Shown here piece by piece: positions 5,076-64,000 of a stretch of DNA of 64,000 nucleotides. Below the pieces are notes generated by a model. It saw nothing but the letters and a program-made list of their open reading frames with translations, was not told where the DNA came from and searched no databases. The stretch lies in assembly GCF_056746865.1 (NCBI RefSeq), contig NZ_CM163382.1. The stretch is one strand, 5' to 3'. Position 1 is the first letter of the stretch. Every line of letters begins with the position of its first letter. The position numbers and the translations under genes were made by a program.

Positions 5076-5116
5076 TATTAATTCCGATTGAGTTTATTAT
5101 TAATTAGGTCACTGGC

Positions 5117-8659: not shown

Positions 8660-8674
8660 GTTAATCCTTACTGG

Positions 8675-10535: not shown

Positions 10536-10537
10536 TG

Positions 10538-11938: not shown

Positions 11939-12039
11939 TTCTCACCATTCATACAAAGCAGTAAAAGTGATACAGATTAGAATCACCCGGAACAGCCCGT
12001 TCGTGTGTGTCATTCATGACAGTCTGTTCCGGACGGGCT

Positions 12040-12987: not shown

Positions 12988-13060
12988 ATTCAGCTCCTGA
13001 AAAAAGGCCGGATCGTGGCTGACTTAAACCGGCCAAGTAAGGTGAGTAACGATGAATTAA

Positions 13061-14070: not shown

Positions 14071-14206
14071 AGTCTCCTGAACTCAGGTCGTAGTAGAAAG
14101 AGACTAAAGTATAAGAGGCGTATTTCAGGAAGATTAGAGGGTCATTGACTTAAGCATTTTTAGACTGTACTTAATAATCAGGCGAGAATTGCTTTAGGAA
14201 AACATT

Positions 14207-15106: not shown

Positions 15107-15503
15107 AGACGATAACGCCTCGTTCGGTATGGAGATGCATCGAATGGCATTGTGAGTTTTTTTTCACAGATGGGCGTAATCGTCAGTGGATTTTACATAC
15201 AAGGATAGCGCCCACATACTGACATCATTAATTAACGTTGGGTGAGGTTTACCGGGGGGAGGGGAAAGCGAACCAGGAGATGGAGGTGGCCAATCTGGTA
15301 CGAACCGCCGCGTAGCTTGCACGGCAAAAGCTGCTGACTGATTCATCAGTTAAGCTACTGAAAGAGCGGAACACATGAACTTAAGAACAAACCCACCATA
15401 TTTAACATAATATACATTATGCGCACCAACATAAACCAAGGGAGAATCCAGTCGTTGGCGGTCATGATTGTCCTGCTCATTAACAACGGCCAAACCCCAT
15501 ATC

Positions 15504-20300: not shown

Positions 20301-22723
20301 AAGGTACTGTCTTTCAGTTGGGCAACACCGGCGAATTCAGTCCCTGCTGCATGGGTAAAGCCAAACATTTTGTCGGAGGATGACAGCTGCACTCGCATCA
20401 AGCCATCGCCTTTGAGCGCATTGGTCAGCGTGTAATCTCCCGCACTGTTCGTTGATGCGAGAATGTCGAGCGTACCGGGGCTTGCAATGGTTACTTCACT
20501 CGAACCCATGCCAGTTACCCCATCTGCCGTATGTGACGCAATGGTCAGGAGGCCGCCATTGACCAACGTTTTACCGCTATAAGTATTCCCTGCATTGAAC
20601 ACCGTATGGCCTGCATCATGCATCACTTTTCCGTCTTTATCGTCACCCGTAATCAGCATATCGACCTGGTAGCCGGCATCACTGTTATTGGTATGATTAA
20701 AGACAAAAACGCCTTCGCCAAGACCAAACTCCACTTTCGTCGCATTGGTGATAAATCCGGCATCTGCCGCCGCCTCACCGTGAGCAGCACCAATGTTTAG
20801 CGTTCCTACAGCAGGCGCAAAAACACCTAAGTAAACTTCTCCACCTTCGACATTCAGCGTACCGTTATTCGTCAGGGTTAACGTACCTGTGCCAGTCGTC
20901 CCTACGTTCATATTGAATGTTTCAAGAAGAGAGTTCTGCCCATCCACCCGCACGTCGCCCTTACTTTTGTCATTGAGAGCTATTTGTGTATCACGCGCTT
21001 TAACTATACCTCCGGTGGTAATATTCAGTTCACCCGCGCCTAATACACCGACCTGTAGTAATTGGGCGTTAGTAGATGATGTCTTTAAATTCCAGAGACT
21101 ATCCGTTGAAATATTAACTATCCCCTTACCGGAGGCATTTCCTCCGATAAATCCATAGCCCGTTGAATTAAGAGTGGCACCATTACTGACATTTACGATG
21201 CCGCTACCAAAATTACCGACATTGATACCTACAGTATCGAACGATGATGTCGCATCCATCAGGTTCAGTGTGCCGATACCGCTTGCTTTATCGCCCAAAA
21301 AAGTAATATTTTGCGATACGAACTTACCGCCATCGCTGATATTGAGGTTTCCGACACCCGCAACACCAATGGTGGTATAGACATTCTTATTGACCTCCCA
21401 CATCCCCCCCGTGGTGATGCTGACATTCCCGACGCCGGTTTCTCCATAACCGAGTGAGCTTCCTCCGTTGCTGACAACAAGCCCCTCATTACTGATATTC
21501 ATTTCGCCGTGGCCGTCATAACCAAGATTAGTTCCGAGATTAGTGATAACGGAGTTCTTATCCTTAATAGTAATGTTGCCTGTGCCTGTTTCTTTCATCC
21601 CCGCAGTGATAATTCCCGAATCTACTTTTCCTTCACTCGAGACATTAAGTTCACCGTCGCCAGCATCACCGATATAGATATAGCGGAAAGCTTCGCCCGT
21701 TCCGAGGAAATTCCAATGCCCTTTATCGGTCACGTTGACGACACCGTGGGACCCGTCCTGAACGCCCACAAATGAATATTCTTTGTTATTAATCAGTCCA
21801 TTATTGGAAATATTGACTTTGCCATTACCGAAATATCCATTATAGAGTCTGCGTACCGTGATAACAGAGTCTTGATCCTGCACATTCAGGGTTCCGATAC
21901 CGGTGGCATTGCCACCGATAATCGTATTTTCAGCCGTAATCAGCCCCCCCTCGCGAATAGTCGCTTCCCCCGTGCCTTGATTGCCAATTTGAAATTCAAT
22001 TGAGGAATCATTATTTTTTATTAGCCACTCGCCACCCTTTTCAACGACAACCTTACCATTGCTGTTCGCCTGATATCCTACAATGGCGACGATTGAACTC
22101 GTGACGTAACCCTTATCCGTAATATTTAATGAGCCTGTACCGTAACTCCCTATTTCGAATAATTCGGTCGTCAGAACCGAGTACTCTCCCTCAACATTGA
22201 CCGTCCCGACGCCTCCTGTCGAAGAACCTATCCTTAAATATCCTCCGTCAACGTGACCCTTCTGTTTAATATTCAGCGTCCCCGTACCGGATTGACCCAC
22301 ATTTAAAGGCCTTGCATTATTTCCGCTATCATACAATCGCCAGGTGCCACCCAAAACATTAACGGTACCCTCCGAGTCCTCATTAGCGCCAATGACGCTG
22401 GTAGTAATAGTGGTTAAGGAAGCATTACCGCCAGCCAAAATATTAAGCACTCCAGTGCCATACCACCCAACCAGGTAGGCATCGTAAGCAATATCAGTAT
22501 TAATATTGGTAATCTGACCATTATCAACTTCCAGACTCGCACCACACGCTGAACCGCTTAGTGCCAGCAAAACACCCAGCGTCAATCTACTGAATTTCGT
22601 TGTCAGTCCAGAGGATTTACGCAAATTAACCGTTGATGTTTTACCTACCCTGCGAGTTAATTCCGAGCAGGCCTGAAATACCTGTAGGGTGCAATTCCAT
22701 ATCACGCGATAGATTCTATTCAT
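17303..22723 (-). CDS. yneO: AIDA-I-type autotransporter adhesin, full length (K-12 counterpart is the yneO/ydeK pseudogene)
   Basis: 1806-aa ORF; extended signal peptide MNRIYRVIWNCTLQVF…; long Gly/Asn/Thr-rich repeat passenger; C-terminal beta-barrel-like region ending …GMLGVKYSW. Confidence 0.85.
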   Translation of the reverse strand: MNRIYRVIWNCTLQVFQACSELTRRVGKTSTVNLRKSSGLTTKFSRLTLGVLLALSGSACGASLEVDNGQITNINTDIAYDAYLVGWYGTGVLNILAGGNASLTTITTSVIGANEDSEGTVNVLGGTWRLYDSGNNARPLNVGQSGTGTLNIKQKGHVDGGYLRIGSSTGGVGTVNVEGEYSVLTTELFEIGSYGTGSLNITDKGYVTSSIVAIVGYQANSNGKVVVEKGGEWLIKNNDSSIEFQIGNQGTGEATIREGGLITAENTIIGGNATGIGTLNVQDQDSVITVRRLYNGYFGNGKVNISNNGLINNKEYSFVGVQDGSHGVVNVTDKGHWNFLGTGEAFRYIYIGDAGDGELNVSSEGKVDSGIITAGMKETGTGNITIKDKNSVITNLGTNLGYDGHGEMNISNEGLVVSNGGSSLGYGETGVGNVSITTGGMWEVNKNVYTTIGVAGVGNLNISDGGKFVSQNITFLGDKASGIGTLNLMDATSSFDTVGINVGNFGSGIVNVSNGATLNSTGYGFIGGNASGKGIVNISTDSLWNLKTSSTNAQLLQVGVLGAGELNITTGGIVKARDTQIALNDKSKGDVRVDGQNSLLETFNMNVGTTGTGTLTLTNNGTLNVEGGEVYLGVFAPAVGTLNIGAAHGEAAADAGFITNATKVEFGLGEGVFVFNHTNNSDAGYQVDMLITGDDKDGKVMHDAGHTVFNAGNTYSGKTLVNGGLLTIASHTADGVTGMGSSEVTIASPGTLDILASTNSAGDYTLTNALKGDGLMRVQLSSSDKMFGFTHAAGTEFAGVAQLKDSTFALERDNTAALTHAMLQSDSENTTSVKVGEQSIGGLAMNGGTLTFDTDIPAATLAEGYISVDTLVVGAGDYTWKGRNYQVNGTGDVLIDVPKPWNDPMANNPLTTLNLLEHDDSHVGVQLVKAQTVIGSGGSLTLRDLQGDEVEADKTLHIAQNGIVVAEGDYGFRLTTAPGDGLYVNYELKALNIHGGQKLTLAEHGGAYGATADMSAKIGGEGDLAINTVRQVSLSNGQNDYQGATYVQMGTLRTDADGALGNTRELNISNAAIVDLNGSAQTVETFTGLMGSTVLFKEGSLTVNKGGISQGELTGGGNLNVTGGTLAIEGLNARYNALTSISPNAEVSLDNTQGLGRGNIANDGLLTLKNVTGELRNSISGKGIVSATARTDVELDGDNSRFVGQFNIDTGSALSVNEQKNLGDASVINNGLLTISTERSWAMTHSISGSGDVTKLGTGILTLNKDSAAYQGTTDIVGGEIAFGSDSAINMASQHINIHNSGVMSGNVTTAGDVNVMPGGTLRVAKTTVGGNLENGGTVQMNSEGGKPGNVLTVNGNYTGNNGLMTFNATLGGDNSPTDKMNVKGDTQGNTRVRVDNIGGVGAQTVNGIELIEVGGNSAGNFALTTGTVEAGAYVYTLAKGKGNDEKNWYLTSKWDGVTPADTPDPINNPPVVDPEGPSVYRPEAGSYISNIAAANSLFSHRLHDRLGEPQYTDSLHSQGSASSMWMRHVGGHERSRAGDGQLNTQANRYVLQLGGDLAQWSSNAQDRWHLGVMAGYANQHSNTQSNRVGYKSDGRISGYSAGIYATWYQNDANKTGAYVDSWALYNWFDNSVSSDNRSADDYDSRGVTASVEGGYTFEAGTFSGSEGTLNTWYVQPQVQITWMGVKDSDHIRKDGTRIETEGDGNVQTRLGVKTYLNSHHQRDNGKQREFQPYIEANWINNSKVYAVKMNGQTVSRDGARNLGEVRTGVEAKVNNNLSLWGNVGVQLGDKGYSDTQGMLGVKYSW

Positions 22724-35524: not shown

Positions 35525-36943
35525 TCAGACAACTTCCTCACCGTAACGCATAGTGCTGGTACGGTTGCGCCCATCTTTCTTCGAGCGATACAGACACGTA
35601 TCGGCTTCGACCATCAATTTATTAAAATCATCGGTCAGCGTTCGGTACGATGCGCGACCACTACCGACGCCAATACTTACCGTGAGATAAAGCGTTTTTT
35701 GTTGCCAGGTGAACGGTTGCAGTTCAACGCCTTTACGGATTTTTTCCGCCATTAGCAGACCATCGACAGGATTCACCGACGGCACTGCAACAGCAAATTC
35801 TTCGCCGCCCATGCGCGCCACCAGCCCCTTATCACCGACAATCTTCTGAATATGCCGGGCAAACACGCTTAACACTTTATCGCCACATTCATGTCCATAG
35901 TTATCGTTAATGCTTTTGAAATAGTCAATATCAAGCAGCATGACCGTCAGATGTTGTGTCTGTTTCAGCGATGGACTTTTCAGCGCCTCATAAAGACCGG
36001 ACCGTGAGTAAACCTGAGTCAGAAAATCAAAGTCGGCTCGCAGCGCAACTTGCTTCATTAGCGAATTGATCGCTGCCACGCTAAAAGAAACCATAATTGG
36101 GCATATCGCCATCGTAGCAATACCGAGACGTGCGGAGAACATTTGCGGAATGGAGAACGGCGAACCGACCGAGATATCAATCACCGAATTTGCCACCAGT
36201 ACGATTTCCACCGCACCGGTGACAAAGGTCAACAGACATGTTACCTGCGGCGTATAGCGCACGGCACACCAGATTAATGCAGGCAGCGGGAACGCCAGAC
36301 TCCCCGCTCCGCCAATGACTACCGAGGCAATAACCGACACAATAAGCGCGATAGCGGGCATCATCTGTTCTGCTTTAAAGCGCGGCAGCACTCCCGGAAT
36401 AGCCAACGTCAGCATACAAGGCACGATCAACACGCCCGTTGAGAATTGCTCACTGAACCAGTCCGCAAGCAAAGGCCAGAAATCCAGACTATCAATACTG
36501 ACCGAACCAATCGCCCCGACAATAGCGCATAATAATGCGGCAATCAGACAGTAATTAAATAGCCGTAAGGCACTTACTGGCTCATACTTATTTTTCCCCA
36601 GACGCTTATCCCGCGCGACCAGAAAGGCGACGGTAACAATAAACATCATATTGGAGAAATTGATAGCCAGTGAAACCAGCCCCCATTCGGTGGTTATGGC
36701 ATCATAAACCAGCATCGCCACATAACTGATCGCATAGTAATGCAGTCGATTAAGCCAGACATAGCGGGCAAACACCCCCGCCATTACGCCATTCAGCGGC
36801 CAGAAAAGAGAAAGTTCGTGAACCAACCGTAACTCTGCACCAATAAAATAGAACAGCGTGGTTAGCGCAAAAATAGCGATGCTATTACGTAGCAGATGAC
36901 CTTCCTGGAACAAACGGAAAGTTGAAATGGGCTGTACATGCAT
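35525..36943 (-). CDS. dgcF: membrane-anchored diguanylate cyclase (GGDEF domain)
   Basis: 472-aa ORF; multi-pass hydrophobic N-terminal region and C-terminal GGDEF domain (…RMGGEEFAVAV…); true start may be internal. Confidence 0.8.
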   Translation of the reverse strand: MHVQPISTFRLFQEGHLLRNSIAIFALTTLFYFIGAELRLVHELSLFWPLNGVMAGVFARYVWLNRLHYYAISYVAMLVYDAITTEWGLVSLAINFSNMMFIVTVAFLVARDKRLGKNKYEPVSALRLFNYCLIAALLCAIVGAIGSVSIDSLDFWPLLADWFSEQFSTGVLIVPCMLTLAIPGVLPRFKAEQMMPAIALIVSVIASVVIGGAGSLAFPLPALIWCAVRYTPQVTCLLTFVTGAVEIVLVANSVIDISVGSPFSIPQMFSARLGIATMAICPIMVSFSVAAINSLMKQVALRADFDFLTQVYSRSGLYEALKSPSLKQTQHLTVMLLDIDYFKSINDNYGHECGDKVLSVFARHIQKIVGDKGLVARMGGEEFAVAVPSVNPVDGLLMAEKIRKGVELQPFTWQQKTLYLTVSIGVGSGRASYRTLTDDFNKLMVEADTCLYRSKKDGRNRTSTMRYGEEVV

Positions 36944-37081
36944 TAATTATCTGTCCATACAATTGCGGGTGGCAATTATCTCAACGTAATAAGTAAATTC
37001 TTATAAAGGATAGCATGTTCGCTGACAGCGGCGGCAAATAAAGATATCCTGGGAATGCTATTTTATCGTTTTCCGCAATTA

Positions 37082-47635: not shown

Positions 47636-47860
47636 TTTAAGTCGAACACAATAAAAATTTAATTCAGCCTTCGTTTAGGTTACCTCTGCTAATATCTTTC
47701 TCATTGAGATGAAAATTAAGGTAAGCGAGGAAACACACCACACCATAAACGGAGGCAAATAATGCTGGGTAGACTGGCCCCCTGAATCTCCAGACAACCA
47801 ATATCACTTAAATAAGTGATAGTCTTAATACTAGTTTTTAGACTAGTCATTGGAGAGCAG

Positions 47861-48226
47861 ATGATTGATGTCTTAGGACCGGAGAAACGCAGACGGCGTA
47901 CTACACAGGAAAAGATCGCTATTGTTCAGCAGAGTTTTGAACCGGGAATGACGGTCTCCCTTGTTGCCCGGCAACACGGTGTGGCAGCCAGCCAGTTATT
48001 TCTCTGGCGCAAGCAATACCAGGAGGGAAGTCTTACTGCTGTGGCCGCAGGAGAGCAGGTCGTTCCTGCCTCTGAACTTGCTGCTGCCATGAAGCAGATT
48101 AAAGAACTCCAGCGCCTGCTCGGCAAAAAAACGATGGAAAATGAACTCCTTAAAGAAGCCGTTGAATACGGGCGTGCAAAAAAGTGGATAGCGCACGCGC
48201 CCTTATTGCCCGGGGATGGGGAGTAA
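47861..48226 (+). CDS. insC: IS2 InsC (OrfA)
   Basis: 121 aa [26 protein letters not shown]… with GGAG RBS. Confidence 0.9.
48178..48184 (+). other. IS2 -1 programmed frameshift heptamer AAAAAAG
   Basis: A6G slippery sequence at the insC/insD overlap. Confidence 0.7.
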
Positions 48227-49089
48227 GCTTAGTCAGCCGTTGTCTCCGGGTGTCGCGTGCGCAGTTGCACGTCATTCTCAGACGAACCGATGACTGGAAA
48301 GATGGTCGCCGCAGCCGTCACTCAGATGATACGGATGTGCTTCTCCGTATACACCATGTTATCGGAGAGCTGCCCACGTATGGTTATCGTCGGGTATGGG
48401 CGCTGCTTCGCAGACAGGCCGAACTTGATGGTATGCCTGCGATCAATGCCAAACGTGTTTACCGGATCATGCGCCAGAATGCGCTGTTGCTTGAGCGAAA
48501 AACCGCTGTACCGCCATCGAAACGGGCACATACTGGCAAAGTGGCCGTGAAAGAAAGCAATCAACGATGGTGCTCTGACGGGTTCGAGTTCCGCTGTGAT
48601 AACGGAGAAAAACTGCGAGTCACGTTCGCGCTGGACTGCTGTGACCGTGAGGCACTGCACTGGGCAGTCACTACGGGCGGCTTCGACAGTGAAACAGTAC
48701 AGGACGTAATGCTGGGAGCGGTGGAACGCCGCTTCGGCAACGAGCTTCCGGCGTCTCCAGTAGAGTGGCTGACGGATAATGGTTCATGCTACCGGGCTAA
48801 TGAAACACGGCAGTTTGCCCGGATGTTGGGGCTTGAACCGAAGAACACGGCGGTGCGGAGTCCGGAGAGTAACGGCATAGCAGAGAGCTTCGTGAAAACG
48901 ATAAAGCGTGACTACATCAGTATCATGCCTAAACCAGACGGGTTAACGGCAGCAAAGAACCTTGCAGAGGCGTTCGAGCATTATAACGAATGGCATCCGC
49001 ATAGTGCACTGGGTTATCGCTCGCCACGGGAATATCTACGGCAGCGGGCCAGTAATGGGTTAAGTGATAACAGGTGTCTGGAAATATAG
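48184..49089 (+). CDS. insD: IS2 InsD (OrfB, DDE transposase)
   Basis: 301-aa ORF overlapping insC in the -1 frame. Confidence 0.9.
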
Positions 49090-49220
49090 GGGCAAATCCA
49101 CTGGGTAATATGAATGTTTTTATGGCCGTACTGGGAATAATTTTATTTTCTGGTTTTCTGGCCGCGTATTTCAGCCACAAATGGGATGACTAATGAACGG
49201 AGATAATCCCTCACCTAACC

Positions 49221-49260
49221 GGCCCCTTGTTACAGTTGTGTACAAGGGGCCTGATTTTTA
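49221..49260 (+). terminator. Rho-independent terminator downstream of mgtS
   Basis: 10-bp perfect stem GGCCCCTTGT / ACAAGGGGCC with 11-nt loop followed by TGATTTTTA. Confidence 0.75.
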
Positions 49261-49269
49261 TGACGGCAA

Positions 49270-49377
49270 AAAAAAACCGCCAGTAAACCGGCGGTGAATG
49301 CTTGCATGGATAGATTTGTGTTTTGCTTTTACGCTAACAGGCATTTTCCTGCACTGATAACGGATCGTTGACACAGT
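49270..49377 (-). ncRNA. mgrR: candidate PhoP-activated small RNA (MgrR-like)
   Basis: Minus-strand PhoP-box-type promoter (see 49402-49418) with -10-like AAAACT, about 100-nt transcript ending at minus-strand hairpin CCGCCGGTTTACTGGCGG + U9 (49268-49294); no long ORF. Confidence 0.45.
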
Positions 49378-49401
49378 AGCATCAGTTTTCTCAATGAATG
49401 T

Positions 49402-51313: not shown

Positions 51314-53359
51314 TTATATGTTCAAGCCACGATGTTGCAGCATCGGCATAATCTGAGGTGCCTTACCGCGCCATTGTCGATACAGGCGTTCCAGATCTTC
51401 GCTGTTACCTCTGGAAAGAATCGCCTCGCGAAAACGCCGCCCATTTTCACGCGTTAATCCGCCCTGCTCAACAAACCACTGGTAACCATCATCGGCCAAC
51501 ATTTGCGTCCACAGATAAGCGTAATAACCTGCGGCATATCCGCCACCAAAAATATGGGCGAAATAACTGCTGCGATAGCGTGGCGGTATAGCGGGAAGAT
51601 CCATATTTTCTGCCACCAGCGCCCGCAATTCGAAATCATCGACATCCTGCATTGCTTCGTTTTCTTCCAGGCAATGCCAGCGCATATCGAGAAGTGCGGC
51701 GCTAAGCAGTTCGCTCATCTCATACCCTTTATTGAACAGGCTGGCATTACGCATTTTCTGTTGCAGTTCGTCAGGCATTGCTGCCCCGCTCTGATAATGC
51801 CGGGCGTAGCGAGCGAATACCTGCGGATGCGTTGCCCAGTGTTCGTTGATTTGCGACGGAAATTCGACAAAATCACGCGGCGTGTTGGTGCCGGAAAGTG
51901 TGGCATAACGCTGGCGGGCAAAGAGGCCGTGCAACGTATGACCAAATTCATGGAATAAGGTTATGACATCATCCCAGAGTAACAACGCAGGCTCACCGGC
52001 AGCGGGTTTCTGATAATTGCAGACGTTATAAATTACCGGATGCGTTTCATTAAGCGTTGATTGCTCAACAAAATTGCCCATCCATGCACCGCCGCTTTTT
52101 GAATCACGGGCGAAGAAATCACCGTAAAATAACGCCAGCCCCACGCCATTATGATCAAAAATTTCCCATACACGAACGTCAGGATGGTAGACAGGAATAT
52201 CAAAACGTTCGACAAACTTAATACCGAAGAGCTGATTCGCGGTCCAGAATACACCTTCATTCAACACCGTGTTTAATTCAAAATATGGCTTGAGCTGCGA
52301 TTCATCGAGATCGAATTTCTCACGTCTTACCTGCTCGGCATAAAATGCCCAGTCCCACGGCTGCGCGCTAAACCCGCCCTGCTGCTTATCGATAACCGCC
52401 TGTATGGAGGCTAATTCATCGCTCGCACGTTGACGCGCCGCTGGAACAATTTCCCGCATAAAGTTGAGTGCTGCTTCTGGCGTTTTTGCCATCTGATCGG
52501 CGATTTTCCATGCGGCATAATGAGGGAAACCAAGCAGTTTCGCCTGCTGCGCGCGGATCTCCACCAGACGTTGAATGATAGCGCGGGTATCATTGGCATC
52601 ATTTTTTTCCGCTCGCGTCCAGCCCGCAGTGAACAGTTTTTCACGCGTCGCGCGATCGCGCAGTTCAGCAAGCGCTGGTTGCTGGGTGGTATTCAGCAAC
52701 GGAATCAGCCATTTGTTATCCAGACCTTTCTCGCGAGCCGCCTCTGCCGCCAGCGCAATCTCTTGCTCACTCATTCCTGCCAGCTGCGCGAAATCGTTCA
52801 CAACCAGACCGCCGGATTTATTTGCTGCCAGTAACCGCTGGTTAAACTGGCTGGTCAGGGTCGCAGCTTCTGTATTCAGGACTTTTAATTTTGCTTTATC
52901 AGCTTGTGCAAGTTTGGCTCCGGCAAGGACAAAACGTTGATGAATGACCTCCACCAGGCGGATGGATTCACTATCAAGTCCCAGGGATTCACGGCGTTGC
53001 CAGACAGCATCTACCCGCGCGAATAATTCACCGTTCAGATAGATATCATTAGCCAGTTCCGCCAGTTCAGCGGAAAACTGTTCATCAAGACGCTGTAATT
53101 CATCATTAGTATGCGCCGCAGTCATCGCAAAAAAGACGCTGGTAACGCGGGTAAGTAATTCTCCGCTTTGTTCCAGTGCCAGAATAGTATTGTTGAAATC
53201 AGGTGTTTGCGGGTTAAGCGCGATGGCAGCAATTTCTGCCCGCTTTTGCTGCATTCCCTCATCGAATGCCGGGCGATAGTGATGATTGGCAATTTGATCA
53301 AAATGGGGAGCCAGATACGGCAGTGTGCTTTGCACAAGGAAAGGATTCATTGTTGTCAT
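51314..53359 (-). CDS. dcp: dipeptidyl carboxypeptidase II (M3 metallopeptidase)
   Basis: 681 aa from MTTMNPFLVQSTLPYLAPHFDQI…; HEFGH zinc motif (…TLFHEFGHTLHG…). Confidence 0.9.
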   Translation of the reverse strand: MTTMNPFLVQSTLPYLAPHFDQIANHHYRPAFDEGMQQKRAEIAAIALNPQTPDFNNTILALEQSGELLTRVTSVFFAMTAAHTNDELQRLDEQFSAELAELANDIYLNGELFARVDAVWQRRESLGLDSESIRLVEVIHQRFVLAGAKLAQADKAKLKVLNTEAATLTSQFNQRLLAANKSGGLVVNDFAQLAGMSEQEIALAAEAAREKGLDNKWLIPLLNTTQQPALAELRDRATREKLFTAGWTRAEKNDANDTRAIIQRLVEIRAQQAKLLGFPHYAAWKIADQMAKTPEAALNFMREIVPAARQRASDELASIQAVIDKQQGGFSAQPWDWAFYAEQVRREKFDLDESQLKPYFELNTVLNEGVFWTANQLFGIKFVERFDIPVYHPDVRVWEIFDHNGVGLALFYGDFFARDSKSGGAWMGNFVEQSTLNETHPVIYNVCNYQKPAAGEPALLLWDDVITLFHEFGHTLHGLFARQRYATLSGTNTPRDFVEFPSQINEHWATHPQVFARYARHYQSGAAMPDELQQKMRNASLFNKGYEMSELLSAALLDMRWHCLEENEAMQDVDDFELRALVAENMDLPAIPPRYRSSYFAHIFGGGYAAGYYAYLWTQMLADDGYQWFVEQGGLTRENGRRFREAILSRGNSEDLERLYRQWRGKAPQIMPMLQHRGLNI

Positions 53360-53495
53360 TTTCTTCTCCTGAACGCGAGGTGTTCCATAGCGTAGGCTTA
53401 CTGATAACGGAGTGCAATCTTGCAAACCAGTATTACCCGCTCTTAAGCATCACGTGCTATGTTATTGACACACAAAAGCGTTGAGGAACAGTGAG

Positions 53496-54242
53496 ATGAT
53501 CGTTTTAGTAACTGGAGCAACGGCAGGTTTTGGTGAATGCATTACTCGTCGTTTTATTCAACAAGGGCATAAAGTTATCGCCACTGGCCGTCGCCAGGAG
53601 CGGTTGCAGGAGTTAAAAGACGAACTGGGAGATAATCTTTATATCGCCCAACTGGACGTTCGCAACCGCGCCGCTATTGAAGAGATGCTGGCATCGCTTC
53701 CTGCCGAGTGGAGCAATATTGATATCCTGGTAAATAATGCCGGCCTGGCGTTGGGCATGGAGCCTGCGCATAAAGCCAGCGTTGAAGACTGGGAAACGAT
53801 GATTGATACCAACAATAAAGGCCTGGTATATATGACGCGCGCCGTCTTACCGGGTATGGTTGAACGTAATCATGGTCATATTATTAACATTGGCTCAACG
53901 GCAGGTAGCTGGCCGTATGCCGGTGGTAACGTTTACGGTGCGACGAAAGCGTTTGTTCGTCAGTTTAGCCTGAATCTGCGTACGGACCTGCATGGTACGG
54001 CGGTGCGCGTCACCGACATCGAACCGGGTCTGGTGGGTGGCACCGAGTTTTCCAATGTCCGCTTTAAAGGCGATGACGGTAAAGCGGAAAAAACCTATCA
54101 AAATACCGTTGCATTGACGCCAGAAGATGTCAGCGAAGCCGTCTGGTGGGTATCAACGCTGCCTGCTCACGTTAATATCAATACCCTGGAAATGATGCCG
54201 GTTACCCAAAGCTATGCCGGACTGAATGTCCACCGTCAGTAA
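53496..54242 (+). CDS. ydfG: NADP-dependent 3-hydroxy acid dehydrogenase (SDR)
   Basis: 248 aa from MIVLVTGATAGFGECITRRF…; Rossmann motif. Confidence 0.9.
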   Translation: MIVLVTGATAGFGECITRRFIQQGHKVIATGRRQERLQELKDELGDNLYIAQLDVRNRAAIEEMLASLPAEWSNIDILVNNAGLALGMEPAHKASVEDWETMIDTNNKGLVYMTRAVLPGMVERNHGHIINIGSTAGSWPYAGGNVYGATKAFVRQFSLNLRTDLHGTAVRVTDIEPGLVGGTEFSNVRFKGDDGKAEKTYQNTVALTPEDVSEAVWWVSTLPAHVNINTLEMMPVTQSYAGLNVHRQ

Positions 54243-54250
54243 TTTTTATA

Positions 54251-54275
54251 CCCGGCGTAACTGCCGGGTTATTGC
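54251..54275 (+). terminator. Rho-independent terminator after ydfG
   Basis: CCCGGC-gtaact-GCCGGG stem followed by TTATTGCTT. Confidence 0.6.
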
Positions 54276-54330
54276 TTGTCACAAAAAAGTGGTAGACTCA
54301 TGCAGTTAACTCACTCACAAGCAAGAACGA

Positions 54331-55017
54331 ATGACCGTCGAAACGCAACTTAATCCCACACAGCCTGTCAATCAGCAGATTTATCGTATTCTTCGTCGCG
54401 ACATTGTCCATTGCCTGATTGCACCAGGCACACCGTTGTCGGAAAAAGAAGTTTCTGTTCGTTTCAATGTGTCACGCCAGCCGGTTCGTGAAGCCTTTAT
54501 TAAACTGGCGGAAAACGGCCTGATTCAAATTCGTCCGCAGCGTGGCAGCTACGTCAACAAAATTTCCATGGCCCAGGTGCGCAACGGCAGTTTTATCCGT
54601 CAGGCCATTGAGTGCGCGGTGGCGCGTCGGGCGGCGAGCATGATTACCGAAAGCCAGTGCTACCAACTGGAACAAAATCTTCACCAGCAACGCATTGCCA
54701 TTGAGCGCAAGCAACTGGATGATTTTTTTGAACTTGATGACAACTTCCATCAACTCCTGACGCAGATTGCCGACTGTCAACTGGCGTGGGATACCATTGA
54801 GAACCTGAAAGCGACCGTTGATCGCGTGCGCTATATGAGTTTCGACCACGTTTCTCCACCAGAAATGCTGTTACGCCAGCATCTTGAGATTTTCTCTGCC
54901 CTGCAAAAACGTGATGGCGATGCGGTAGAACGTGCAATGACGCAACATTTGCAGGAAATCAGCGAATCCGTGCGCCAGATCCGCCAGGAAAACAGCGACT
55001 GGTTTAGCGAAGAGTAA
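54331..55017 (+). CDS. rspR: GntR/FadR-family transcriptional regulator
   Basis: 228-aa ORF with N-terminal winged HTH (…[19 protein letters not shown]…). Confidence 0.85.
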
Positions 55018-55098
55018 TTCATTTCCTCTCATCCCATTCGGGGTGAGAGTCTCTCCCCCCGCCTTATGGCTCATGCATGCATCAAAAAAGATGTGAGC

Positions 55099-55112
55099 TT
55101 GATCAAAAACAA
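55099..55112. promoter_or_regulatory. FNR-like site TTGAT-caaa-AACAA upstream of ydfZ
   Basis: Read from sequence; 9 of 10 match to TTGAT-N4-ATCAA; -10-like TATTTA about 22 bp downstream. Confidence 0.35.
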
Positions 55113-55193
55113 AAAATATTTCACTCGACAGGAGTATTTATATTGCGCCCGTTACGTGGGCTTCGACTGTAAATCAGAAAGGAGAAAACACCT

Positions 55194-55397
55194 ATGACGA
55201 CCTACGATCGTAACCGTAACGCAATCACCACTGGCAGCCGTGTTATGGTTAGCGGCACCGGTCACACTGGCAAGATCCTGTCGATTGATACTGAAGGTCT
55301 GACCGCTGAGCAAATCCGCCGCGGAAAAACCGTAGTTGTTGAAGGTTGTGAAGAGAAACTGGCACCTCTGGACCTGATTCGTCTCGGCATGAACTAA
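55194..55397 (+). CDS. ydfZ: small conserved protein YdfZ
   Basis: 67-aa [38 protein letters not shown]… with AGGAG RBS. Confidence 0.85.
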
Positions 55398-55405
55398 GCG
55401 TGTGA

Positions 55406-55436
55406 ATGCCGCCGATGGCGGCATTGCTTTTTTTAC
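55406..55436. terminator. bidirectional Rho-independent terminator between ydfZ and ydfI
   Basis: ATGCCGCC-gat-GGCGGCAT stem followed by TGCTTTTTTT. Confidence 0.75.
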
Positions 55437-56893
55437 TTCACGGAATATTTCGCAACGGTCGCTTTCGCACCATGCGCTAATAAAGACAAGTACGCTTCCG
55501 TCACTTTTGCAGTAAACAAGCTATTGTCTGGCAAATCATCACCAAAGATCGCCTTAATCGCCAGCAATGACTGGACGCGCGCTTTCCCTTCGGCACTACT
55601 TTGTACAGCCTTCTGAATAACAGGTAACAGTGGGTCACTGATTTCTATCGGATTTCCCTGTTCATCAACACCACCGACATAACGCATCCAACCTGCGACG
55701 CCCAGCGCCAGCAGATCGAACTTGCTGTCATGCGCCAGATGCCAGCGAACAGAATCCAACATCCGCTGTGGCAATTTCTGGCTGCCATCCATCGCAATCT
55801 GCCAGGTTCGATGACGTAGCGCCGGGTTGCTATAGCGTTCAATTAATCGGTTAGCGTAATCTTGCAAATCAACGCCCTGCACTTTCAACGTCGGCGCTTG
55901 TTCCTGCAACATCAAGGCATACGCTGCATGACGATAATGTTCATCTTCCATGCAGTCATTAATGTGCTGATATCCGGCAAGATACCCCAGATACGCCAGG
56001 AATGAATGACTGCCGTTGAGCATGCGCAACTTCATCTCTTCATAAGGCAGCACATCACTAACCAGTTCGGCTCCCGCTTTTTCCCATTCCGGACGTCCGG
56101 CAACAAAGTTATCTTCTATTACCCACTGGCGGAAAGGTTCACAGGCAACGCCAGCAGGATCGCGCACACCGGTAAGTTGTTCGATTTTCGCCAGCGTATC
56201 CTCTGTCACTGCGGGCACAATACGGTCCACCATTGTTGATGGGAAAGTCACGTTTACTTCGATCCATTGTGCCAGTTTTACATCAACAGCTTGCGCGTAG
56301 GAAGTGACAACGTCACGCATAACATGACCGTTTTCTGGCATGTTGTCACATGACATGACGGTAAATGCGGGAAGTCCTGCCGCTTTACGGCGAGCCAGCG
56401 CCTCAACAATCACCCCTGTTGCAGTTTTCGGCTGGTGGGGATTTTGCACGTCGGCAGCGACCATCGGGTGATCGAGCATTAACTGTCCGGTCGCCGGAGA
56501 GTGGAAATACCCTTTTTCGGTGATTGTCAGAGAGACAATCGCGATTTGCGGTTCACACATCGCAGCCAACACGGTTTCTAAGCCATCTATCTGTACGTGC
56601 AAGGCTTTTTTAACGACGCCAACGACGCGAGCCGTCCACGCATCGGCCGACATTTCCGCAACGGTATAAAGATTATCTTGCTGTTGTAAATCGGCAATTT
56701 GCTGTTCGCCGCCGATTAAATTGACCTCATAATATCCCCAATCACTGAAATGTTTTGTAGCAAGAATATCGGCATACACGCCCTGATGCGCACGGTGAAA
56801 TGCGCCAAAGCCTAAATGAACAATTCTTGGGGCCAAGTTATTACGATCATAAACAGGGAGCGTCGCTTTTGCTGATAACAAATTATTTCCCAT
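55433..56893 (-). CDS. ydfI: mannitol-dehydrogenase-family oxidoreductase
   Basis: 486-aa ORF with long-chain mannitol/mannonate dehydrogenase pattern. Confidence 0.85.
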
Positions 56894-56982
56894 AACAATT
56901 CCTTAAATTTAAATATGGCAAGCTGCATGTTTTGTTATATGAATAAAAAATCCCCTCTCCGGTAAGAGAAGGGATGGAGGAT

Positions 56983-58350
56983 TTACAGACTTCTTGAAGG
57001 TTGCGCAGCTGTTACAACACGCGGTTGATCTTCCGCGGCATCTTCCAGTGCACTTAAATCACGGTCTCTCACTTCTGGCATTTTCAGCGCAGAGATTAAA
57101 CCAATCACTGAATATGCCATGATCATAATGGCGATCGGATACCAGGATTCCGTCATGGTGCAGAAAATACCCGCCAGGATAGGACCAAAACCGGAAGCGA
57201 TAAGACCACCAATTTCTTTAGAAATCGCCATCCGGGTAAAGCGGTTTTTACAGCCGAACATTTCTGCCATGGTAATGTTTTCCAGAGCAAATAATCCCAG
57301 CACCGCACAGTTATGAATCACAATCAGTGCAACCATAATGGTGCTCGGGGCATAGCTTTTATCTACGATGATAGAAAGCATTGGCCACGCCAGCACAATC
57401 GCAGAGGTATTCATAATAATATACGGGATCCGGCGACCTATTTTATCGGATAACCAACCAAGGAACGGAATGGTCATAAAGCCGAGAATCGAACTGATCA
57501 TCAATGCATCTGTTGGAATTGCTTTGTTAAACAATAACGTCTGCACTAAATAGCCTGCAAGGAAAGTCTGAATTAAACCGGAGTTACCAGCCTGACCAAA
57601 ACGCAGCCCTGTTGCCAGCCAGAAGGATTTGCTCTGGAACATGCTACCAGCAGGTGCAGGTTTTGCTGTCGGTTGGTTGCTGTCGTTAACCTTCTCAAAG
57701 ACCGGGCTTTCTTTCAGATTCATACGCAACCAGATAGCAAAGACCATCACGACAACGCTCGCCAGGAACGGTATACGCCATCCCCACGCAAGCAGTTCCT
57801 CTTTACTGAGAATGAAGAACATAAAGGCCCAGATTGCCGTTGCGCTCAAGGTTCCGCAGTTAGTCCCCATAGCAACAAATGAGGAGATAATTCCGCGCTT
57901 ACCTTTTGGTGCATATTCCGCCAGCATCGTGCCGGCACCGGAAATTTCCGCGCCTGCCCCCAGCCCCTGAATAATACGCAGCGTCACCAGCAAAATTGGC
58001 GCAAACACACCAATTTGTGCATAGGTCGGCAGCACACCAATTAAGGTAGTACAGATCCCCATCATAGTGATGGTAATAAAGAGCACTTTTTTACGCCCGA
58101 TTCTGTCGCCCATTTTGCCGAAAATAAATGCTCCGACAATACGCGCCACATAACCTGCACCGTAGGTTCCCATTGCCAGAATTAACGCCATTGCCGTTGA
58201 TGATTCAGGAAAAAATATTTCATGAAACACTAACGCTGCGCCGAGCGAATATAACTGGAAATCCATAAATTCAAGCGCAGTGCCCAGCCATCCCGATACT
58301 GCTGCTTTCACCAAATCCTTAGTGCTTCTTTCGTGTTTTTCTATTGTCAT
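56983..58350 (-). CDS. ydfJ: MFS metabolite:H+ symporter, apparently intact
   Basis: 455-aa uninterrupted 12-TM-like ORF. Confidence 0.85.
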   Translation of the reverse strand: MTIEKHERSTKDLVKAAVSGWLGTALEFMDFQLYSLGAALVFHEIFFPESSTAMALILAMGTYGAGYVARIVGAFIFGKMGDRIGRKKVLFITITMMGICTTLIGVLPTYAQIGVFAPILLVTLRIIQGLGAGAEISGAGTMLAEYAPKGKRGIISSFVAMGTNCGTLSATAIWAFMFFILSKEELLAWGWRIPFLASVVVMVFAIWLRMNLKESPVFEKVNDSNQPTAKPAPAGSMFQSKSFWLATGLRFGQAGNSGLIQTFLAGYLVQTLLFNKAIPTDALMISSILGFMTIPFLGWLSDKIGRRIPYIIMNTSAIVLAWPMLSIIVDKSYAPSTIMVALIVIHNCAVLGLFALENITMAEMFGCKNRFTRMAISKEIGGLIASGFGPILAGIFCTMTESWYPIAIMIMAYSVIGLISALKMPEVRDRDLSALEDAAEDQPRVVTAAQPSRSL

Positions 58351-58407
58351 AATGGTTATCTCTAAAAAAGAGGTAAGATGCGTACTACTTACTCGCCGTT
58401 ATTGGTA

Positions 58408-59427
58408 TTATTCAGAAAAAGTGAGTAAGACTTTGCAGCAATGCTTTTGATCCTGTTCAAATAAACTAATGGCATCAGCAACATGCTGGAAATCAAACGT
58501 ATGGGTAATTAGTTTTTCTGGTTTAATTAACCCTTTACTTAACCAGTCGATAACGACCGGGAATTTATTTGCATTTAAGCGTGAAGAGAAAATAGAGAGT
58601 TCTTTTCCGGTAATTCCTTGCTGAATCACTTCAGACGGTTCACTGGAGAAGCCCATCAATACAATACGTGCCGCTGGAGAAGCCAGCGTTACGGCTTCTT
58701 TCAGGATTGAAGGATGACAAGCCGCATCGATAATTAATGTCGGCTTTATGCCTTTTTCAGCGAAAATCTCGCCAAGCGGTGTCTGGCTGTTATTAATCGC
58801 CCAGTCTGCCCCGCTCTCTTTCGCTTTTTCCAGTCGTTCATCAATGCGATCGGCAACAATCACATTCTTAACGTTATAGACGCCTTTTAATACCTGAACG
58901 ATCGTCAGGCCGATTGGACCGGCACCGTAAACCAGAACGGTATCATTTTCAGTCGGTTGACCATGACCGGTAACGTTAGCCGCAATGGTAAAAGGTTCGA
59001 TCATCACCGCATATTGATCGGCCACTGCTTCAGGAATTTTCCACGCATTTTTTGCCGGCACCACGGCATATTCACTGAAACCACCGTCAGCGTGCACACC
59101 TAATACAGCCAGTGTCGTACAAACGTTCGGCTTACCTATAGAGCACGGATAGCAATGCCCACAGCTGACCACCGGATCGACAGCAACGCGTTCACCGACT
59201 CTGGCGCTTTCCACGCCTTCACCCACTGCATCAATGACGCCAAAGAATTCATGACCAATGACGCGCGGATATTTCGCAAAAGGATTATGCCCACGATAAA
59301 TATGGCTATCTGAACCACAAATTCCGGCAAGTTTCACTTTTACTCGTACTTCACCCGCTGACGGGGTGGGTATTTCGCGTTCGATAATTGCCAGTTGATT
59401 CGGTTTTTCAATTAAAATGCTTTTCAT
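58408..59427 (-). CDS. rspB: zinc-dependent alcohol-dehydrogenase-family oxidoreductase
   Basis: 339 aa from MKSILIEKPNQLAIIEREIP…; GHE zinc motif. Confidence 0.85.
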   Translation of the reverse strand: MKSILIEKPNQLAIIEREIPTPSAGEVRVKVKLAGICGSDSHIYRGHNPFAKYPRVIGHEFFGVIDAVGEGVESARVGERVAVDPVVSCGHCYPCSIGKPNVCTTLAVLGVHADGGFSEYAVVPAKNAWKIPEAVADQYAVMIEPFTIAANVTGHGQPTENDTVLVYGAGPIGLTIVQVLKGVYNVKNVIVADRIDERLEKAKESGADWAINNSQTPLGEIFAEKGIKPTLIIDAACHPSILKEAVTLASPAARIVLMGFSSEPSEVIQQGITGKELSIFSSRLNANKFPVVIDWLSKGLIKPEKLITHTFDFQHVADAISLFEQDQKHCCKVLLTFSE

Positions 59428-59438
59428 TATCTTACTCC

Positions 59439-60653
59439 TTACCAGTTCCACAGCGTGCCATCTTCCAGACGTGCGACTGGCAGATAAGCAGGTTCATAGG
59501 GATATTTCGCCGCCAGCTTTTCATCGAATTCGATGCCAAGACCCGGTTTGTCTCCCGGATGCATATAGCCGTTATCGAAAGTCCAGTTGTGCGGGAAGAC
59601 TTCAAGCATTTGTTCGGAATAACCCATGTATTCCTGGACACCGAAATTGGGGACCCACAGATCAAAGTGCAGCGCCGCAGCCATGCAGACTGGTGACAAA
59701 TCGGAAGGACCGTGTGAGCCAGTACGTACCTGATACAACGAAGCAAAATCGGCAATCCGGCGCATACCGGTAATTCCGCCTGCATGGGTCAGCGTGGTGC
59801 GGATATAATCGATAAGTTGCTCTTCAATCAGTTGCTTGCAGTCCCAGATGCTGTTGAAGACTTCACCCACCGCGATGGGTGTGACGGTATGTTGGCGAAT
59901 GAGACGGAAGCATTCCTGGTTTTCCGCAGGCGTCGGGTCTTCCATCCAGAACATGCGATAATCTTCAATGCTTTTACCAAAGCGCGCCGCTTCAATAGGC
60001 GTTAAGCGATGGTGCATGTCATGCAGCAAATGTTCATTAAAACCAAACTTGTTACGTACCGCGTCAAACAATTTCGGCATGAAATCGAGGTATTTCTCCG
60101 TCGACCACAACTGCTCTTCCGGCCACTGTCCTTTGGTTGCGGGTTCATAAGCCAGACCTTTGCCTTTCGACATGCCGTAGGTGGTTTTCATACCAGGGAT
60201 TCCGCACTGCACGCGGATGGCTTTGAATCCCAGCTCCTGATGACGGGCATAATCATCCAGAGCTTCATCAATACTGTGACCGGTGGTATGGCAATAAACC
60301 ATCACCCCTTCACGAGACGCGCCGCCGAGTAACTGGTAAAGCGGCATGTTGGCAGCTTTGGCTTTAATATCCCACAGCGCCATATCAACCGCTGAAATGG
60401 CCGACATCGTCACCGGACCGCGACGCCAGTAAGCACCTTTATAGAAAAACTGCCAGATATCTTCGATACGGTGTGCATCGCGACCAATAAGCTGCGGACA
60501 AAGGTGATCCTGCAAATAAGAGGCCACGGAAAGCTCACGTCCATTGAGGGTGGCATCCCCAAGGCCCGTAATACCGTCCTCAGTGGTGATTTTTAATGTG
60601 ACGAAATTACGCCCCGGACAGGTAACAAAAACTTCAGCCTTTACGATCTTCAT
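59439..60653 (-). CDS. rspA: enolase-superfamily mannonate-dehydratase-like starvation-sensing protein
   Basis: 404 aa from [22 protein letters not shown]…. Confidence 0.85.
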
Positions 60654-60858
60654 GTTCGATTCCTTGCATCGCTTGTCGTGATGCATGAAATCTACGCAAC
60701 TGAGCTACTACCATACAAGTATGAAGATCGAAAAAAGCCGGAGTGATCACAAAAAAAGGCGTATATTTGCGCCGTGAATGGTTGACAAAAGATGAAATAG
60801 AATACCTTTTGTCAGCTGACACTTCCTTGTATCTTATTGATAAAATGGATTTATGTCC

Positions 60859-61185
60859 TTACGCGCGCCCCCAGCCCGCAACAATGATCAACATGCCGCA
60901 AAGCGCAATCAACGCCCCCGTCCAGTCATAAAGACTCAGTTTCACGCCATCCACAACGCGCAGCCACATCAACGCCGTGCAGACATAAACGCCACCATAA
61001 GCCGCGTAAACACGCCCACTCGCCGCAGGATGCAACGTTAACAACCAGACAAACAGTGCCAGAGAAATCCCCGCCGGAAGCAACAGCCAGATACTGGCGT
61101 TTCGTTTTAACCACAACCAGGGCAGAAAGCATCCAATAATTTCACACAGCGCAGTAGCAAAAAATAGTAACGTTGTTTTAATCAT
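60859..61185 (-). CDS. ynfA: small inner-membrane protein (UPF0060)
   Basis: 108 aa from [23 protein letters not shown]…. Confidence 0.8.
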
Positions 61186-61319
61186 CTTTGTCACTTATTG
61201 ACATCATGTATAGTTATAGGACGACATAATATCATCAATATAAACATCCTCCTGGTACGTTTTGCGTTCGCAGTGGATGGTGTAGAATCACCTTTAATCA
61301 TTCATACAGGGAATGAATT

Positions 61320-61661
61320 ATGAAAATTACTCTCAGCAAACGAATTGGCCTGCTCGCTTTTCTGCTGCCTTGCGCACTGGCATTGAGCACAACTGTTCAT
61401 GCCGAAACTAACAAACTGGTGATTGAGTCTGGCGACAGTGCGCAAAGCCGCCAGCACGCCGCTATGGAAAAAGAGCAATGGAATGACACGCGCAATCTGC
61501 GCCAGAAAGTGAATAAACGCACTGAAAAAGAGTGGGATAAAGCCGACGCCGCTTTTGATAACCGCGATAAATGTGAGCAAAGCGCCAACATCAATGCCTA
61601 CTGGGAGCCAAATACTTTGCGCTGCCTGGACCGTCGAACTGGCCGCGTTATTACCCCCTAA
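61320..61661 (+). CDS. ynfB: secreted protein YnfB (UPF0482)
   Basis: 113-aa ORF with signal peptide. Confidence 0.8.
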
Positions 61662-61695
61662 CCTGTTATTGATTTAAGGAATGTAAGGACACGTT

Positions 61696-62256
61696 ATGCC
61701 AAGCGCCCACAGTGTTAAGCTACGCCCGCTGGAGCGTGAAGATTTACGCTATGTACATCAACTCGACAATAACGCCAGTGTGATGCGTTACTGGTTTGAG
61801 GAACCCTACGAAGCCTTTGTTGAACTCTCTGATCTGTACGATAAGCATATTCACGATCAGAGCGAACGGCGCTTTGTGGTGGAATGTGACGGCGAAAAAG
61901 CCGGTCTGGTGGAGCTGGTGGAAATTAACCATGTTCATCGCCGCGCAGAATTTCAGATAATTATCTCCCCGGAATATCAGGGGAAAGGTCTGGCAACGCG
62001 TGCCGCAAAATTAGCAATGGACTATGGCTTCACCGTTCTCAATCTCTATAAGCTGTATCTGATCGTCGATAAAGAGAATGAAAAAGCGATACACATTTAC
62101 CGCAAGCTTGGCTTTACGGTTGAAGGTGAATTGATGCATGAGTTCTTTATTAATGGTCAATATCGGAATGCCATTCGCATGTGCATATTCCAGCATCAGT
62201 ATCTGGCAGAGCACAAAACACCGGGTCAGACTCTCCTGAAGCCGACCGCACAATAG
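61696..62256 (+). CDS. speG: spermidine N1-acetyltransferase
   Basis: 186-aa GNAT-fold [26 protein letters not shown]…. Confidence 0.9.
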
Positions 62257-62258
62257 CA

Positions 62259-62969
62259 TTAATAATAATCGATAGTATTTTTGATGGTGTAAACCCGTTC
62301 GATGGCGGGTTTTACTCCTTCATCAACAATGATTAGCTGACAGTCCACCGGATTGGCGTGACTGTCATATTCACAGCTCTGTTTTACATTACCAACTCTT
62401 TGATTATTCAGTATAGTAACCGCTGTGTAATCTAATTTTTTGATCGGGTCCGTTGATGGCGTGGCGCTAACAGATAATGTTTTGTCGTGACTTTTCGTGG
62501 TTTTACCCAGCGGATACCCCTGATCATCATAGCGATATTCCATCTGCATCTGTTTGCTGCTGGCTTTAATCACAAAGCCATTATCATCGGTTTCCCAACT
62601 CACCCCGGCAGAAGGTAATTCTGCTAGCTGGCATTTTCCCTGCAAACGAACTCTTTTCTCCAGTGTCTGGGCATCACGGTAATAATTGGCGTCCAGTACC
62701 AGGGCAACCACGGTATTATTTTCCAGATCCAGTAATTCGAGTGAATCAAAACAGCCTTCTTCCGACAAAGTCCCCGAAACACGTTTCGTCACTTCACCTT
62801 GCTCATCCATTAATGTCTGAGTGAAATCTTTTACCGGACCACGCAGCGGATCAAAATCGAATTCATTAGAGAAACTGGCCATCTCAGGGGTAAATGAAAG
62901 TGTTACCTCTGTTCGGTCACATCCTGTGAGGAATATCGCGAGTAAGCATGGCAGTAATTTGTATTTCAC
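62259..62969 (-). CDS. ynfC: lipoprotein YnfC (UPF0257), GTG start
   Basis: 236 aa from (GTG)KYKLLPCLLAIFLTGC… with lipobox LTGC; ORF track has 12 extra N-terminal codons. Confidence 0.8.
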   Translation of the reverse strand: MKYKLLPCLLAIFLTGCDRTEVTLSFTPEMASFSNEFDFDPLRGPVKDFTQTLMDEQGEVTKRVSGTLSEEGCFDSLELLDLENNTVVALVLDANYYRDAQTLEKRVRLQGKCQLAELPSAGVSWETDDNGFVIKASSKQMQMEYRYDDQGYPLGKTTKSHDKTLSVSATPSTDPIKKLDYTAVTILNNQRVGNVKQSCEYDSHANPVDCQLIIVDEGVKPAIERVYTIKNTIDYY

Positions 62970-63073
62970 AACAGTCACCAGAGAGTAGAGATGATTCTCA
63001 ATCATAGTAGCAAATACAGTACTTTACACGTTAAATGCTATGCTTAAAGAAGTTATCTTCGCGTAAGGAGCTT

Positions 63074-63382
63074 ATGATGAAACTCTCAACCTGCTGTGCC
63101 GCGCTTCTGCTCGCCCTCGCCTCACCCGCGGTACTCGCCGCGCCGGGATCCTGTGAGCGCATACAGAGCGATATATCACAGCGCATTATCAATAATGGCG
63201 TACCCGAAAGCAGCTTCACGTTAAGTATTGTACCCAATGACCAGGTTGATCAGCCTGATTCCCAGGTCGTCGGGCATTGCGCTAATGATACGCATAAAAT
63301 TCTCTACACCCGCACCACCAGCGGTAACGTCTCTGCTCCCGCGCAGTCTACCCAGGATGGCGCGCCTGCCGAACCGCAGTAA
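63074..63382 (+). CDS. ynfD: secreted DUF1161-family protein
   Basis: about 102 aa from MMKLSTCCAALLLALASPAVLA…. Confidence 0.8.
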   Translation: MMKLSTCCAALLLALASPAVLAAPGSCERIQSDISQRIINNGVPESSFTLSIVPNDQVDQPDSQVVGHCANDTHKILYTRTTSGNVSAPAQSTQDGAPAEPQ

Positions 63383-63467
63383 CACATTATCGACTGAACG
63401 CCGGATACGACACATCCGGCGATTTGAACATACAACATAATCCCACCTTATTACTCATACCCTTCTA

Positions 63468-63481
63468 TTGATATGGATTAA
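63468..63481. promoter_or_regulatory. FNR-like site TTGAT-atgg-ATTAA upstream of ynfE
   Basis: Read from sequence; 9 of 10 match to FNR consensus, about 100 bp upstream of ynfE ATG. Confidence 0.3.
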
Positions 63482-63580
63482 TAATTCTTAACCCAAAATG
63501 GGTAGACTCCCTCTATTGTTAGCGCGCTAAATATTCAATATATAAACTTTTATATAACGATAAAGATCAGGGAGTGAGTT

Positions 63581-64000
63581 ATGTCCAAAAATGAACAAAT
63601 GGTGGGCATCAGCCGCAGAACACTCGTTAAATCTACCGCGATAGGTTCTCTGGCGCTGGCTGCAGGCGGTTTTTCTTTACCGTTCACCCTGCGCAGTGCA
63701 GCGGCAGCGGTACAGCAGGCCAGCGAGAAAGTGGTCTGGGGTGCCTGTTCCGTCAACTGTGGTAGCCGCTGTGCACTTCGTCTGCATGTTAAAGATAATG
63801 AAGTGACCTGGGTGGAAACTGACAACACCGGCAACGACGAGTATGGCAATCATCAAGTACGTGCCTGTTTGCGCGGTCGCTCCATCCGTCGGCGTATTAA
63901 TCATCCCGATCGCTTGAATTACCCAATGAAACGCGTGGGCAAACGCGGCGAAGGCAAATTCGAACGGATTAGCTGGGATGAAGCCCTGGATACTATCGCC
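63581..64000 (+). CDS. ynfE: 5' part of Tat-exported molybdopterin oxidoreductase (DMSO/selenate reductase family catalytic subunit); runs off window end
   Basis: ATG at 63581 with GGAG RBS; twin-arginine signal (…ISRRTLVKSTAIGSLALAAGG…) then Cys cluster CSVNCGSRCALR; no stop before window end. Confidence 0.85.
   Translation, partial: MSKNEQMVGISRRTLVKSTAIGSLALAAGGFSLPFTLRSAAAAVQQASEKVVWGACSVNCGSRCALRLHVKDNEVTWVETDNTGNDEYGNHQVRACLRGRSIRRRINHPDRLNYPMKRVGKRGEGKFERISWDEALDTIA

Follow-up and report, generated by a model that had tools for sequence, protein, structure and literature searches.

Organization of the rsp-ydfJ locus

The stretch of DNA that we analyzed (64,000 nucleotides from an Escherichia coli strain, referred to here as the window) carries rspA-rspB-ydfJ-ydfI and rspR contiguously, as in other Enterobacterales. 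ydfJ occupies positions 56983..58350 on the minus strand; the list of open reading frames (ORFs) gives it as an uninterrupted frame of 455 amino acids (aa) with an ATG start, in agreement with an earlier interpretation made from the letters of the DNA (the sequence-only reading). Relative to transcription, the next gene upstream is rspB (58408..59427, minus strand), and the gap between the two genes (58351..58407) is 57 nt, the distance that the same reading had given. In the ORF list, rspB, whose end is at 58408, is a 347-aa frame if started at an upstream GTG; from the ATG at 59427, which is the PGAP start for the same gene in strain M7424, it encodes 339 aa.

Family assignments for RspA, RspB, YdfJ, and YdfI are all above curated cutoffs. 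RspB is a Zn-dependent oxidoreductase (PRK10083; NF007489, 694.7 bits versus a cutoff of 376); RspA (59439..60653, minus strand; 404 aa) is an enolase-superfamily D-mannonate dehydratase (ManD; NF043051, 744 bits versus a cutoff of 550); and YdfI, encoded downstream of ydfJ (55433..56893, minus strand; 486 aa), belongs to the fructuronate reductase family (NF011611, 650.4 bits versus a cutoff of 603). The ORF, its match to TIGR00883 (metabolite/H+ symporter), and the PGAP annotation in M7424 identify YdfJ as an MHS-family MFS metabolite/H+ symporter; the TIGR00883 match scores 462.9 bits (cutoff, 443.45) and is full-length, with residues 23-418 aligned to profile positions 1-400 of 400. None of the equivalog models scored above its cutoff against YdfJ, those for shikimate, ProP, and TcuC all falling below theirs, and a simple 19-residue Kyte-Doolittle scan resolved neither TM1, the helix that a Qin insertion would be expected to truncate, nor a clean 12-helix set. 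On the other side of ydfI, rspR (ydfH; 54331..55017, plus strand) encodes the GntR-family repressor of rspAB.

No promoter-like or terminator-like sites were predicted in the 57-bp spacer between rspB and ydfJ, and Rfam assigned it to no RNA family. Directly after the ydfJ stop codon is a terminator-like, G+C-rich hairpin (56950..56975, minus strand) of 11 bp followed by a T run, which folded at -16.4 kcal/mol. Upstream of rspA we found the palindrome ATACAAGTAT (60713..60722), the sole match to the RspR-box pattern ATACNNGTAT in the window; the pattern alone is not significant, since 0.79 chance matches are expected in the window, and the position of this candidate box agrees with that of the published operator upstream of rspA, reported together with the definition of the RspR box as ATACnnGTAT (PMC8249747).

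Other features of the window

A 1,331-bp copy of IS2 (47770..49100), with an InsC-like ORF at 47816..48226 and an InsD-like ORF at 48184..49089, is inserted in mgtS, a small-protein gene whose ATG is at 47762, after its eighth nucleotide, and is flanked by a 5-bp target duplication, CTGGG (47765-47769 and 49101-49105). This IS2/mgtS junction was found in none of 5,426 complete Escherichia coli genomes, and the nearest genome, M7424, lacks IS2 there. Just downstream of the disrupted mgtS is the sole Rfam hit in the window, a match to STnc560 (281 bits; 49187..49400, minus strand) at the position of mgrR, the sRNA annotated beside mgtS/mgtT in K-12.

Two blocks of the window are missing from K-12 MG1655, where only a truncated ydeT and the pseudogene yneL remain. 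The 3.3-kb block (3651..6931) completes the ydeQRS fimbrial operon with a full-length usher, a chaperone, and a fimA-like subunit; the 8.0-kb block (7397..15396) encodes aldo/keto reductases, a quinol monooxygenase, a carboxymuconolactone-decarboxylase-family protein, and a LysR regulator. An intact 1,806-aa autotransporter ORF (17303..22723, minus strand), annotated as "ECSE_1600 family autotransporter" in M7424, has the pseudogene yneO as its K-12 counterpart. The diguanylate cyclase gene that matches K-12 dgcF contains 498 nt (36511..37008) with no counterpart in K-12; it is 1,419 nt long, versus 948 nt there. K-12 in turn has about 477 nt around ydeJ (1624735..1625211) that the window lacks at 51187/51190, between ydeI and dcp.

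An unoccupied attachment site inside ydfJ

The sequence-only reading stated that in K-12 the Qin cryptic prophage interrupts ydfJ and leaves rspBA on its far side. The MG1655 annotation agrees: next to a 427-aa ydfJ (b1543) comes the 20.5-kb "cryptic prophage Qin" (1632277..1652745), and beyond this are the 36-aa ynfP, rspB, and rspA. Alignment around ydfJ and rspB showed that MG1655 lacks the adjacency of the two genes, and the interpretation of the locus as unoccupied therefore stands. Qin is described as lying at the 5' end of ydfJ, which has thereby lost 28 N-terminal codons and its promoter (PMC6379469).

By blastn, positions 52001..58273 of the window align to the left K-12 flank with 97.8% identity and positions 58255..64000 to the right flank with 98.1% identity; with both flanks so aligned, no phage DNA is present between ydfJ and rspB. 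Both alignments include positions 58255..58273, a 19-nt overlap that lies 78 to 96 nt inside ydfJ, and it is this position that differs from K-12. The sequence-only reading was thus right that the site is unoccupied, but the interval that it had marked is the spacer at 58351..58407, which we rejected as the att site because it is identical in K-12 (0 of 57 differences), where it separates rspB from ynfP, the 5' stub of ydfJ.

That reading had also proposed looking for att-core repeats at the Qin ends, and these turned up when we aligned the window to both ends of the prophages in K-12 and in E. coli strain 550. In both genomes, attL is CTGGAAATCCATAA-TTCA and attR is CTTGAAATCCATAAATTCA; the window is continuous across the point where both genomes break, its alignments to the two flanks of strain 550 again overlapping by 19 nt, and the bacterial halves of K-12 attL and attR rejoin into exactly the window sequence. 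The 19-bp attB core of the window, CTGGAAATCCATAAATTCA (58255..58273), runs from the third base of ydfJ codon L26 to codon Q32. Together, attB, attL, and attR predict an attP of CTTGAAATCCATAA-TTCA, and we infer that strand exchange occurs within the shared GAAATCCATAA (58258..58268). On the coding strand the core reads TGAATTTATGGATTTCCAG, which encodes (L)EFMDFQ (codons 26-32), and the EFMDFQ-coding motif is conserved in YdfJ homologues across genera.

K-12 YdfJ corresponds to window residues 29-455 with two substitutions, and its annotated 427-aa frame begins at the core-internal ATG that encodes M29; YnfP consists of YdfJ residues 1-31 plus five phage-encoded residues. We considered whether the phage might supply a replacement 5' end for ydfJ and rejected this, because the phage-side ATG at K-12 attL is out of frame, the core there being 1 nt shorter. 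The window thus resembles the Qin (Kim) locus of MG1655 in chromosomal site, core, and rspB-proximal 57-bp spacer, but it has no 20.5-kb insert and no ynfP stub, and its ydfJ encodes 455 rather than 427 aa.

Phage partners of the site

Joining the phage-side arms at both ends of the strain 550 prophage gave a reconstructed attP of 418 nt. It is contiguous in four phage genomes (PhiR42_1, mEp460_ev081, HannyBb, and Tritos; 97.8 to 99.5% identity), in all of which an integrase is annotated under the match, and 15 Stx2a-converting phages match its integrase-side arm at 90% identity. In mEp460_ev081 the predicted attP core, CTTGAAATCCATAATTCA, is present exactly, about 35 nt downstream of the tyrosine integrase gene (1,281 nt), which follows an excisionase gene. 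We regard these four phages as the phage partners of the site; the window carries the bacterial side.

The overlap of the K-12 flanks, the att core, and the presence of attP in free phage all bear out the earlier suggestion that the window holds the unoccupied state of the Qin integration site. We found no evidence contradicting an empty site, and positions 58255..58273 are almost certainly an unoccupied attB for Qin/mEp460-type lambdoid phages inside the 5' end of ydfJ. To judge from its sequence, the site could in principle still accept a phage.

The recovered cores, 18 nt for attP and 19 nt for attB, can be set beside those of the PPydfJ prophages and prophage clusters of Shiga toxin-producing E. 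coli (STEC), for which att has been defined as a sequence of 18 or 19 bp within ydfJ (Nakamura et al. 2021, PMC8112680); the likeness is one of length and of location in ydfJ, and the window differs in having no effector or Stx phage. The same study found phages integrated at ydfJ in many strains, including K-12, and used O104:H4 strain C227-11, which has no phage at the locus, as the empty attB reference (PMC8112680, S7 Fig). When we searched with the junction of the window, some STEC genomes (two of E. coli O157:H7, and OkiPb01679) matched no more than part of the query, either its ydfJ side (1-474) or its final 57 nt. In these genomes the rspB-side sequence of the att site appears to be missing or replaced, as would fit the multiprophage clusters described at ydfJ (PMC8112680).

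As to mechanism, the tyrosine integrase of Qin/mEp460-type phages would recombine the attP core with the attB core, with the exchange falling in the shared GAAATCCATAA. Integration splits ydfJ after about codon 28, leaving a 427-codon remainder without its upstream DNA and a 28-codon stub beside rspB; it would thereby cut ydfJ off from its promoter, as PMC6379469 also states. The site in the window holds no phage, and for that reason ydfJ is whole there and separated from the upstream rspB by 57 bp.

Integration at ydfJ shares basic features with a familiar system and departs from it in its effect on the host. The paradigm for tyrosine integrases is phage lambda, whose attB lies between gal and bio, where insertion is intergenic and harmless. 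The ydfJ site is like lambda attB in having a short core common to attP and attB and in reversible, Int/Xis-mediated integration; it is unlike lambda attB in lying within a coding sequence, so that integration truncates a gene and provides no replacement 5' end.

Occupancy of the site in E. coli

Our population sample consisted of the 5,426 complete E. coli genomes mentioned above. The uninterrupted junction is present in 2,006 of them (37%), the K-12-type attL junction (ydfJ/phage) in 3,169, and the K-12-type attR junction (integrase/rspB) in 2,714. For comparison, the Qin prophage has been reported in 48% of 638 Escherichia and Shigella strains (PMC6379469). An empty ydfJ site is accordingly a common and already published state (PMC6379469, PMC8112680, PMC8249747) and does not in itself constitute new biology.

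Two close relatives of the window differ at the site. In M7424, which differs from the window by 18 mismatches in 62.7 kb and by one IS2, present in the window, the site is empty. In strain 550, whose flanks are 99.98% identical to the window over 22 kb, the site holds a complete prophage (about 47.2 kb) in which the genes for integrase, excisionase, terminase, portal, capsid, and tail are intact; on one side of it is rspB and on the other a ydfJ annotated by PGAP as "missing N-terminus." Since strain 550 is occupied and has nearly identical flanks, occupancy must turn over within one lineage.

Such turnover raises the question of how the site in the window came to be empty. It could be empty secondarily, an ancestral prophage in ydfJ having been lost by precise Int/Xis-mediated excision that restored attB. 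The strain 550 prophage, complete and with intact int and xis between flanks of 99.98% identity, speaks for gain or loss within the lineage, and excision by exchange within the shared core would regenerate exactly the attB of the window. Still, the nearest genome, M7424, is also empty, and one acquisition by strain 550 would explain the pattern no less parsimoniously; the lack of a scar has no weight here, as none is expected either way. We therefore consider secondary emptying rather unlikely, bearing in mind that a site never occupied and a site precisely vacated have the same resulting sequence.

Import of an empty allele by homologous recombination, in place of an occupied one, has in its favor that recombination is frequent in E. 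coli and that the site is polymorphic. It would, however, have to be reconciled with flanks that on both sides are 99.98% identical to those of the occupied strain 550 and 99.96 to 99.99% identical to those of M7424 and in which divergence does not increase locally near ydfJ, which makes it very improbable. Nothing specific points to collapse of a real prophage out of the assembly: the ORF is intact across the junction, and the identical junction occurs in 2,006 complete genomes as well as in outgroup species, so that an artefact is barely conceivable.

Arrangement of the locus in other Enterobacterales

We scanned species-representative genomes outside E. coli for YdfJ and obtained 80 loci, from Citrobacter, Enterobacter, Klebsiella, Raoultella, Kluyvera, Buttiauxella, Serratia, Pragia, Gilliamella, and other genera. 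The YdfJ match begins at or before residue 8 in 79 of the 80, and in 78 a full-length ydfJ has rspB as its direct upstream neighbor, the gap between them having a median of 55 nt (range, 38 to 172 nt). rspA precedes rspB in 62 of the 80 loci, and ydfI follows ydfJ within 400 nt in 59. The rspB-ydfJ adjacency at 78 of 80 outgroup loci shows contiguity of rspAB-ydfJ-ydfI to be the ancestral condition, from which K-12 has departed, and it upholds the description of the 455-aa protein as the ancestral form of the transporter.

Of the two exceptions, one runs into the end of its contig. In the other, from Silvania hatchlandensis (NZ_JAMGZK010000053.1; locus positions 5959..6063), homology to ydfJ begins at residue 25, at the same core (CCCGTGAATTTATGGACTTTCAG); no rspB or rspA was found within 6 kb upstream of ydfJ, and an ORF of the Peptidase_S74 tail-fiber type lies near ydfJ. 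This suggests that in another genus a prophage has independently used the same conserved EFMDFQ-coding site.

Expression and possible function of the intact cluster

In K-12, Qin stands between rspR and rspAB, whereas some other strains have no such interruption (PMC8249747). With Qin included, the separation in K-12 is 26,103 bp (PMC8249747), versus about 5.7 kb between rspR and its operator in the window. In the interrupted state, a Northern blot of K-12 detected only a 2.3-kb rspAB RNA (PMC8249747). In the empty state, rspA-rspB-ydfJ most likely forms one RspR-repressed transcript from the rspA promoter, given the candidate RspR box upstream of rspA, a spacer without a predicted terminator, and a strong terminator-like hairpin after ydfJ.

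We know of no substrate that has been shown for YdfJ; its genetic context offers a candidate. Wichelecki and colleagues (Biochemistry 2014, 53:5692) reportedly described an E. coli CFT073 cluster composed of RspA, RspB, RspD (YdfI), and RspR, in which L-gulonate is reportedly degraded via RspB and YdfI. The window resembles that cluster in gene set and order, and the assignments of its products to the ManD, Zn-dependent dehydrogenase, and fructuronate reductase families, all above cutoffs, point the same way. By analogy, YdfJ would be the importer (a sugar-acid/H+ symporter) of the sugar acid that the cluster degrades, reportedly L-gulonate.

One could also view the ydfJ att site as a reversible switch whose occupancy governs an operon for sugar-acid uptake and catabolism. 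While integrated, a complete prophage like that of strain 550, its int and xis intact, would sever ydfJ from the rspA promoter that RspR controls and so keep it silent; once excised, it would leave behind a functional rspAB-ydfJ transcript. We consider such a role doubtful; if it were real, closely related strains would differ in their use of, for example, L-gulonate according to lysogeny.

Implications

The comparison bears on how the reference strain is read. K-12 carries a derived, damaged form of a locus whose ancestral layout places rspR, ydfI, ydfJ, and rspBA in one contiguous cluster, and the proper gene model for ydfJ is that of 455 aa; strains like the one that provided the window are therefore the ones in which the functions of the rsp genes and YdfJ should be studied. 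The ydfJ site is also a recognized landing pad for lambdoid phages, including those that carry Stx2a and effectors, and with an empty, sequence-perfect attB this strain could in principle be lysogenized there.
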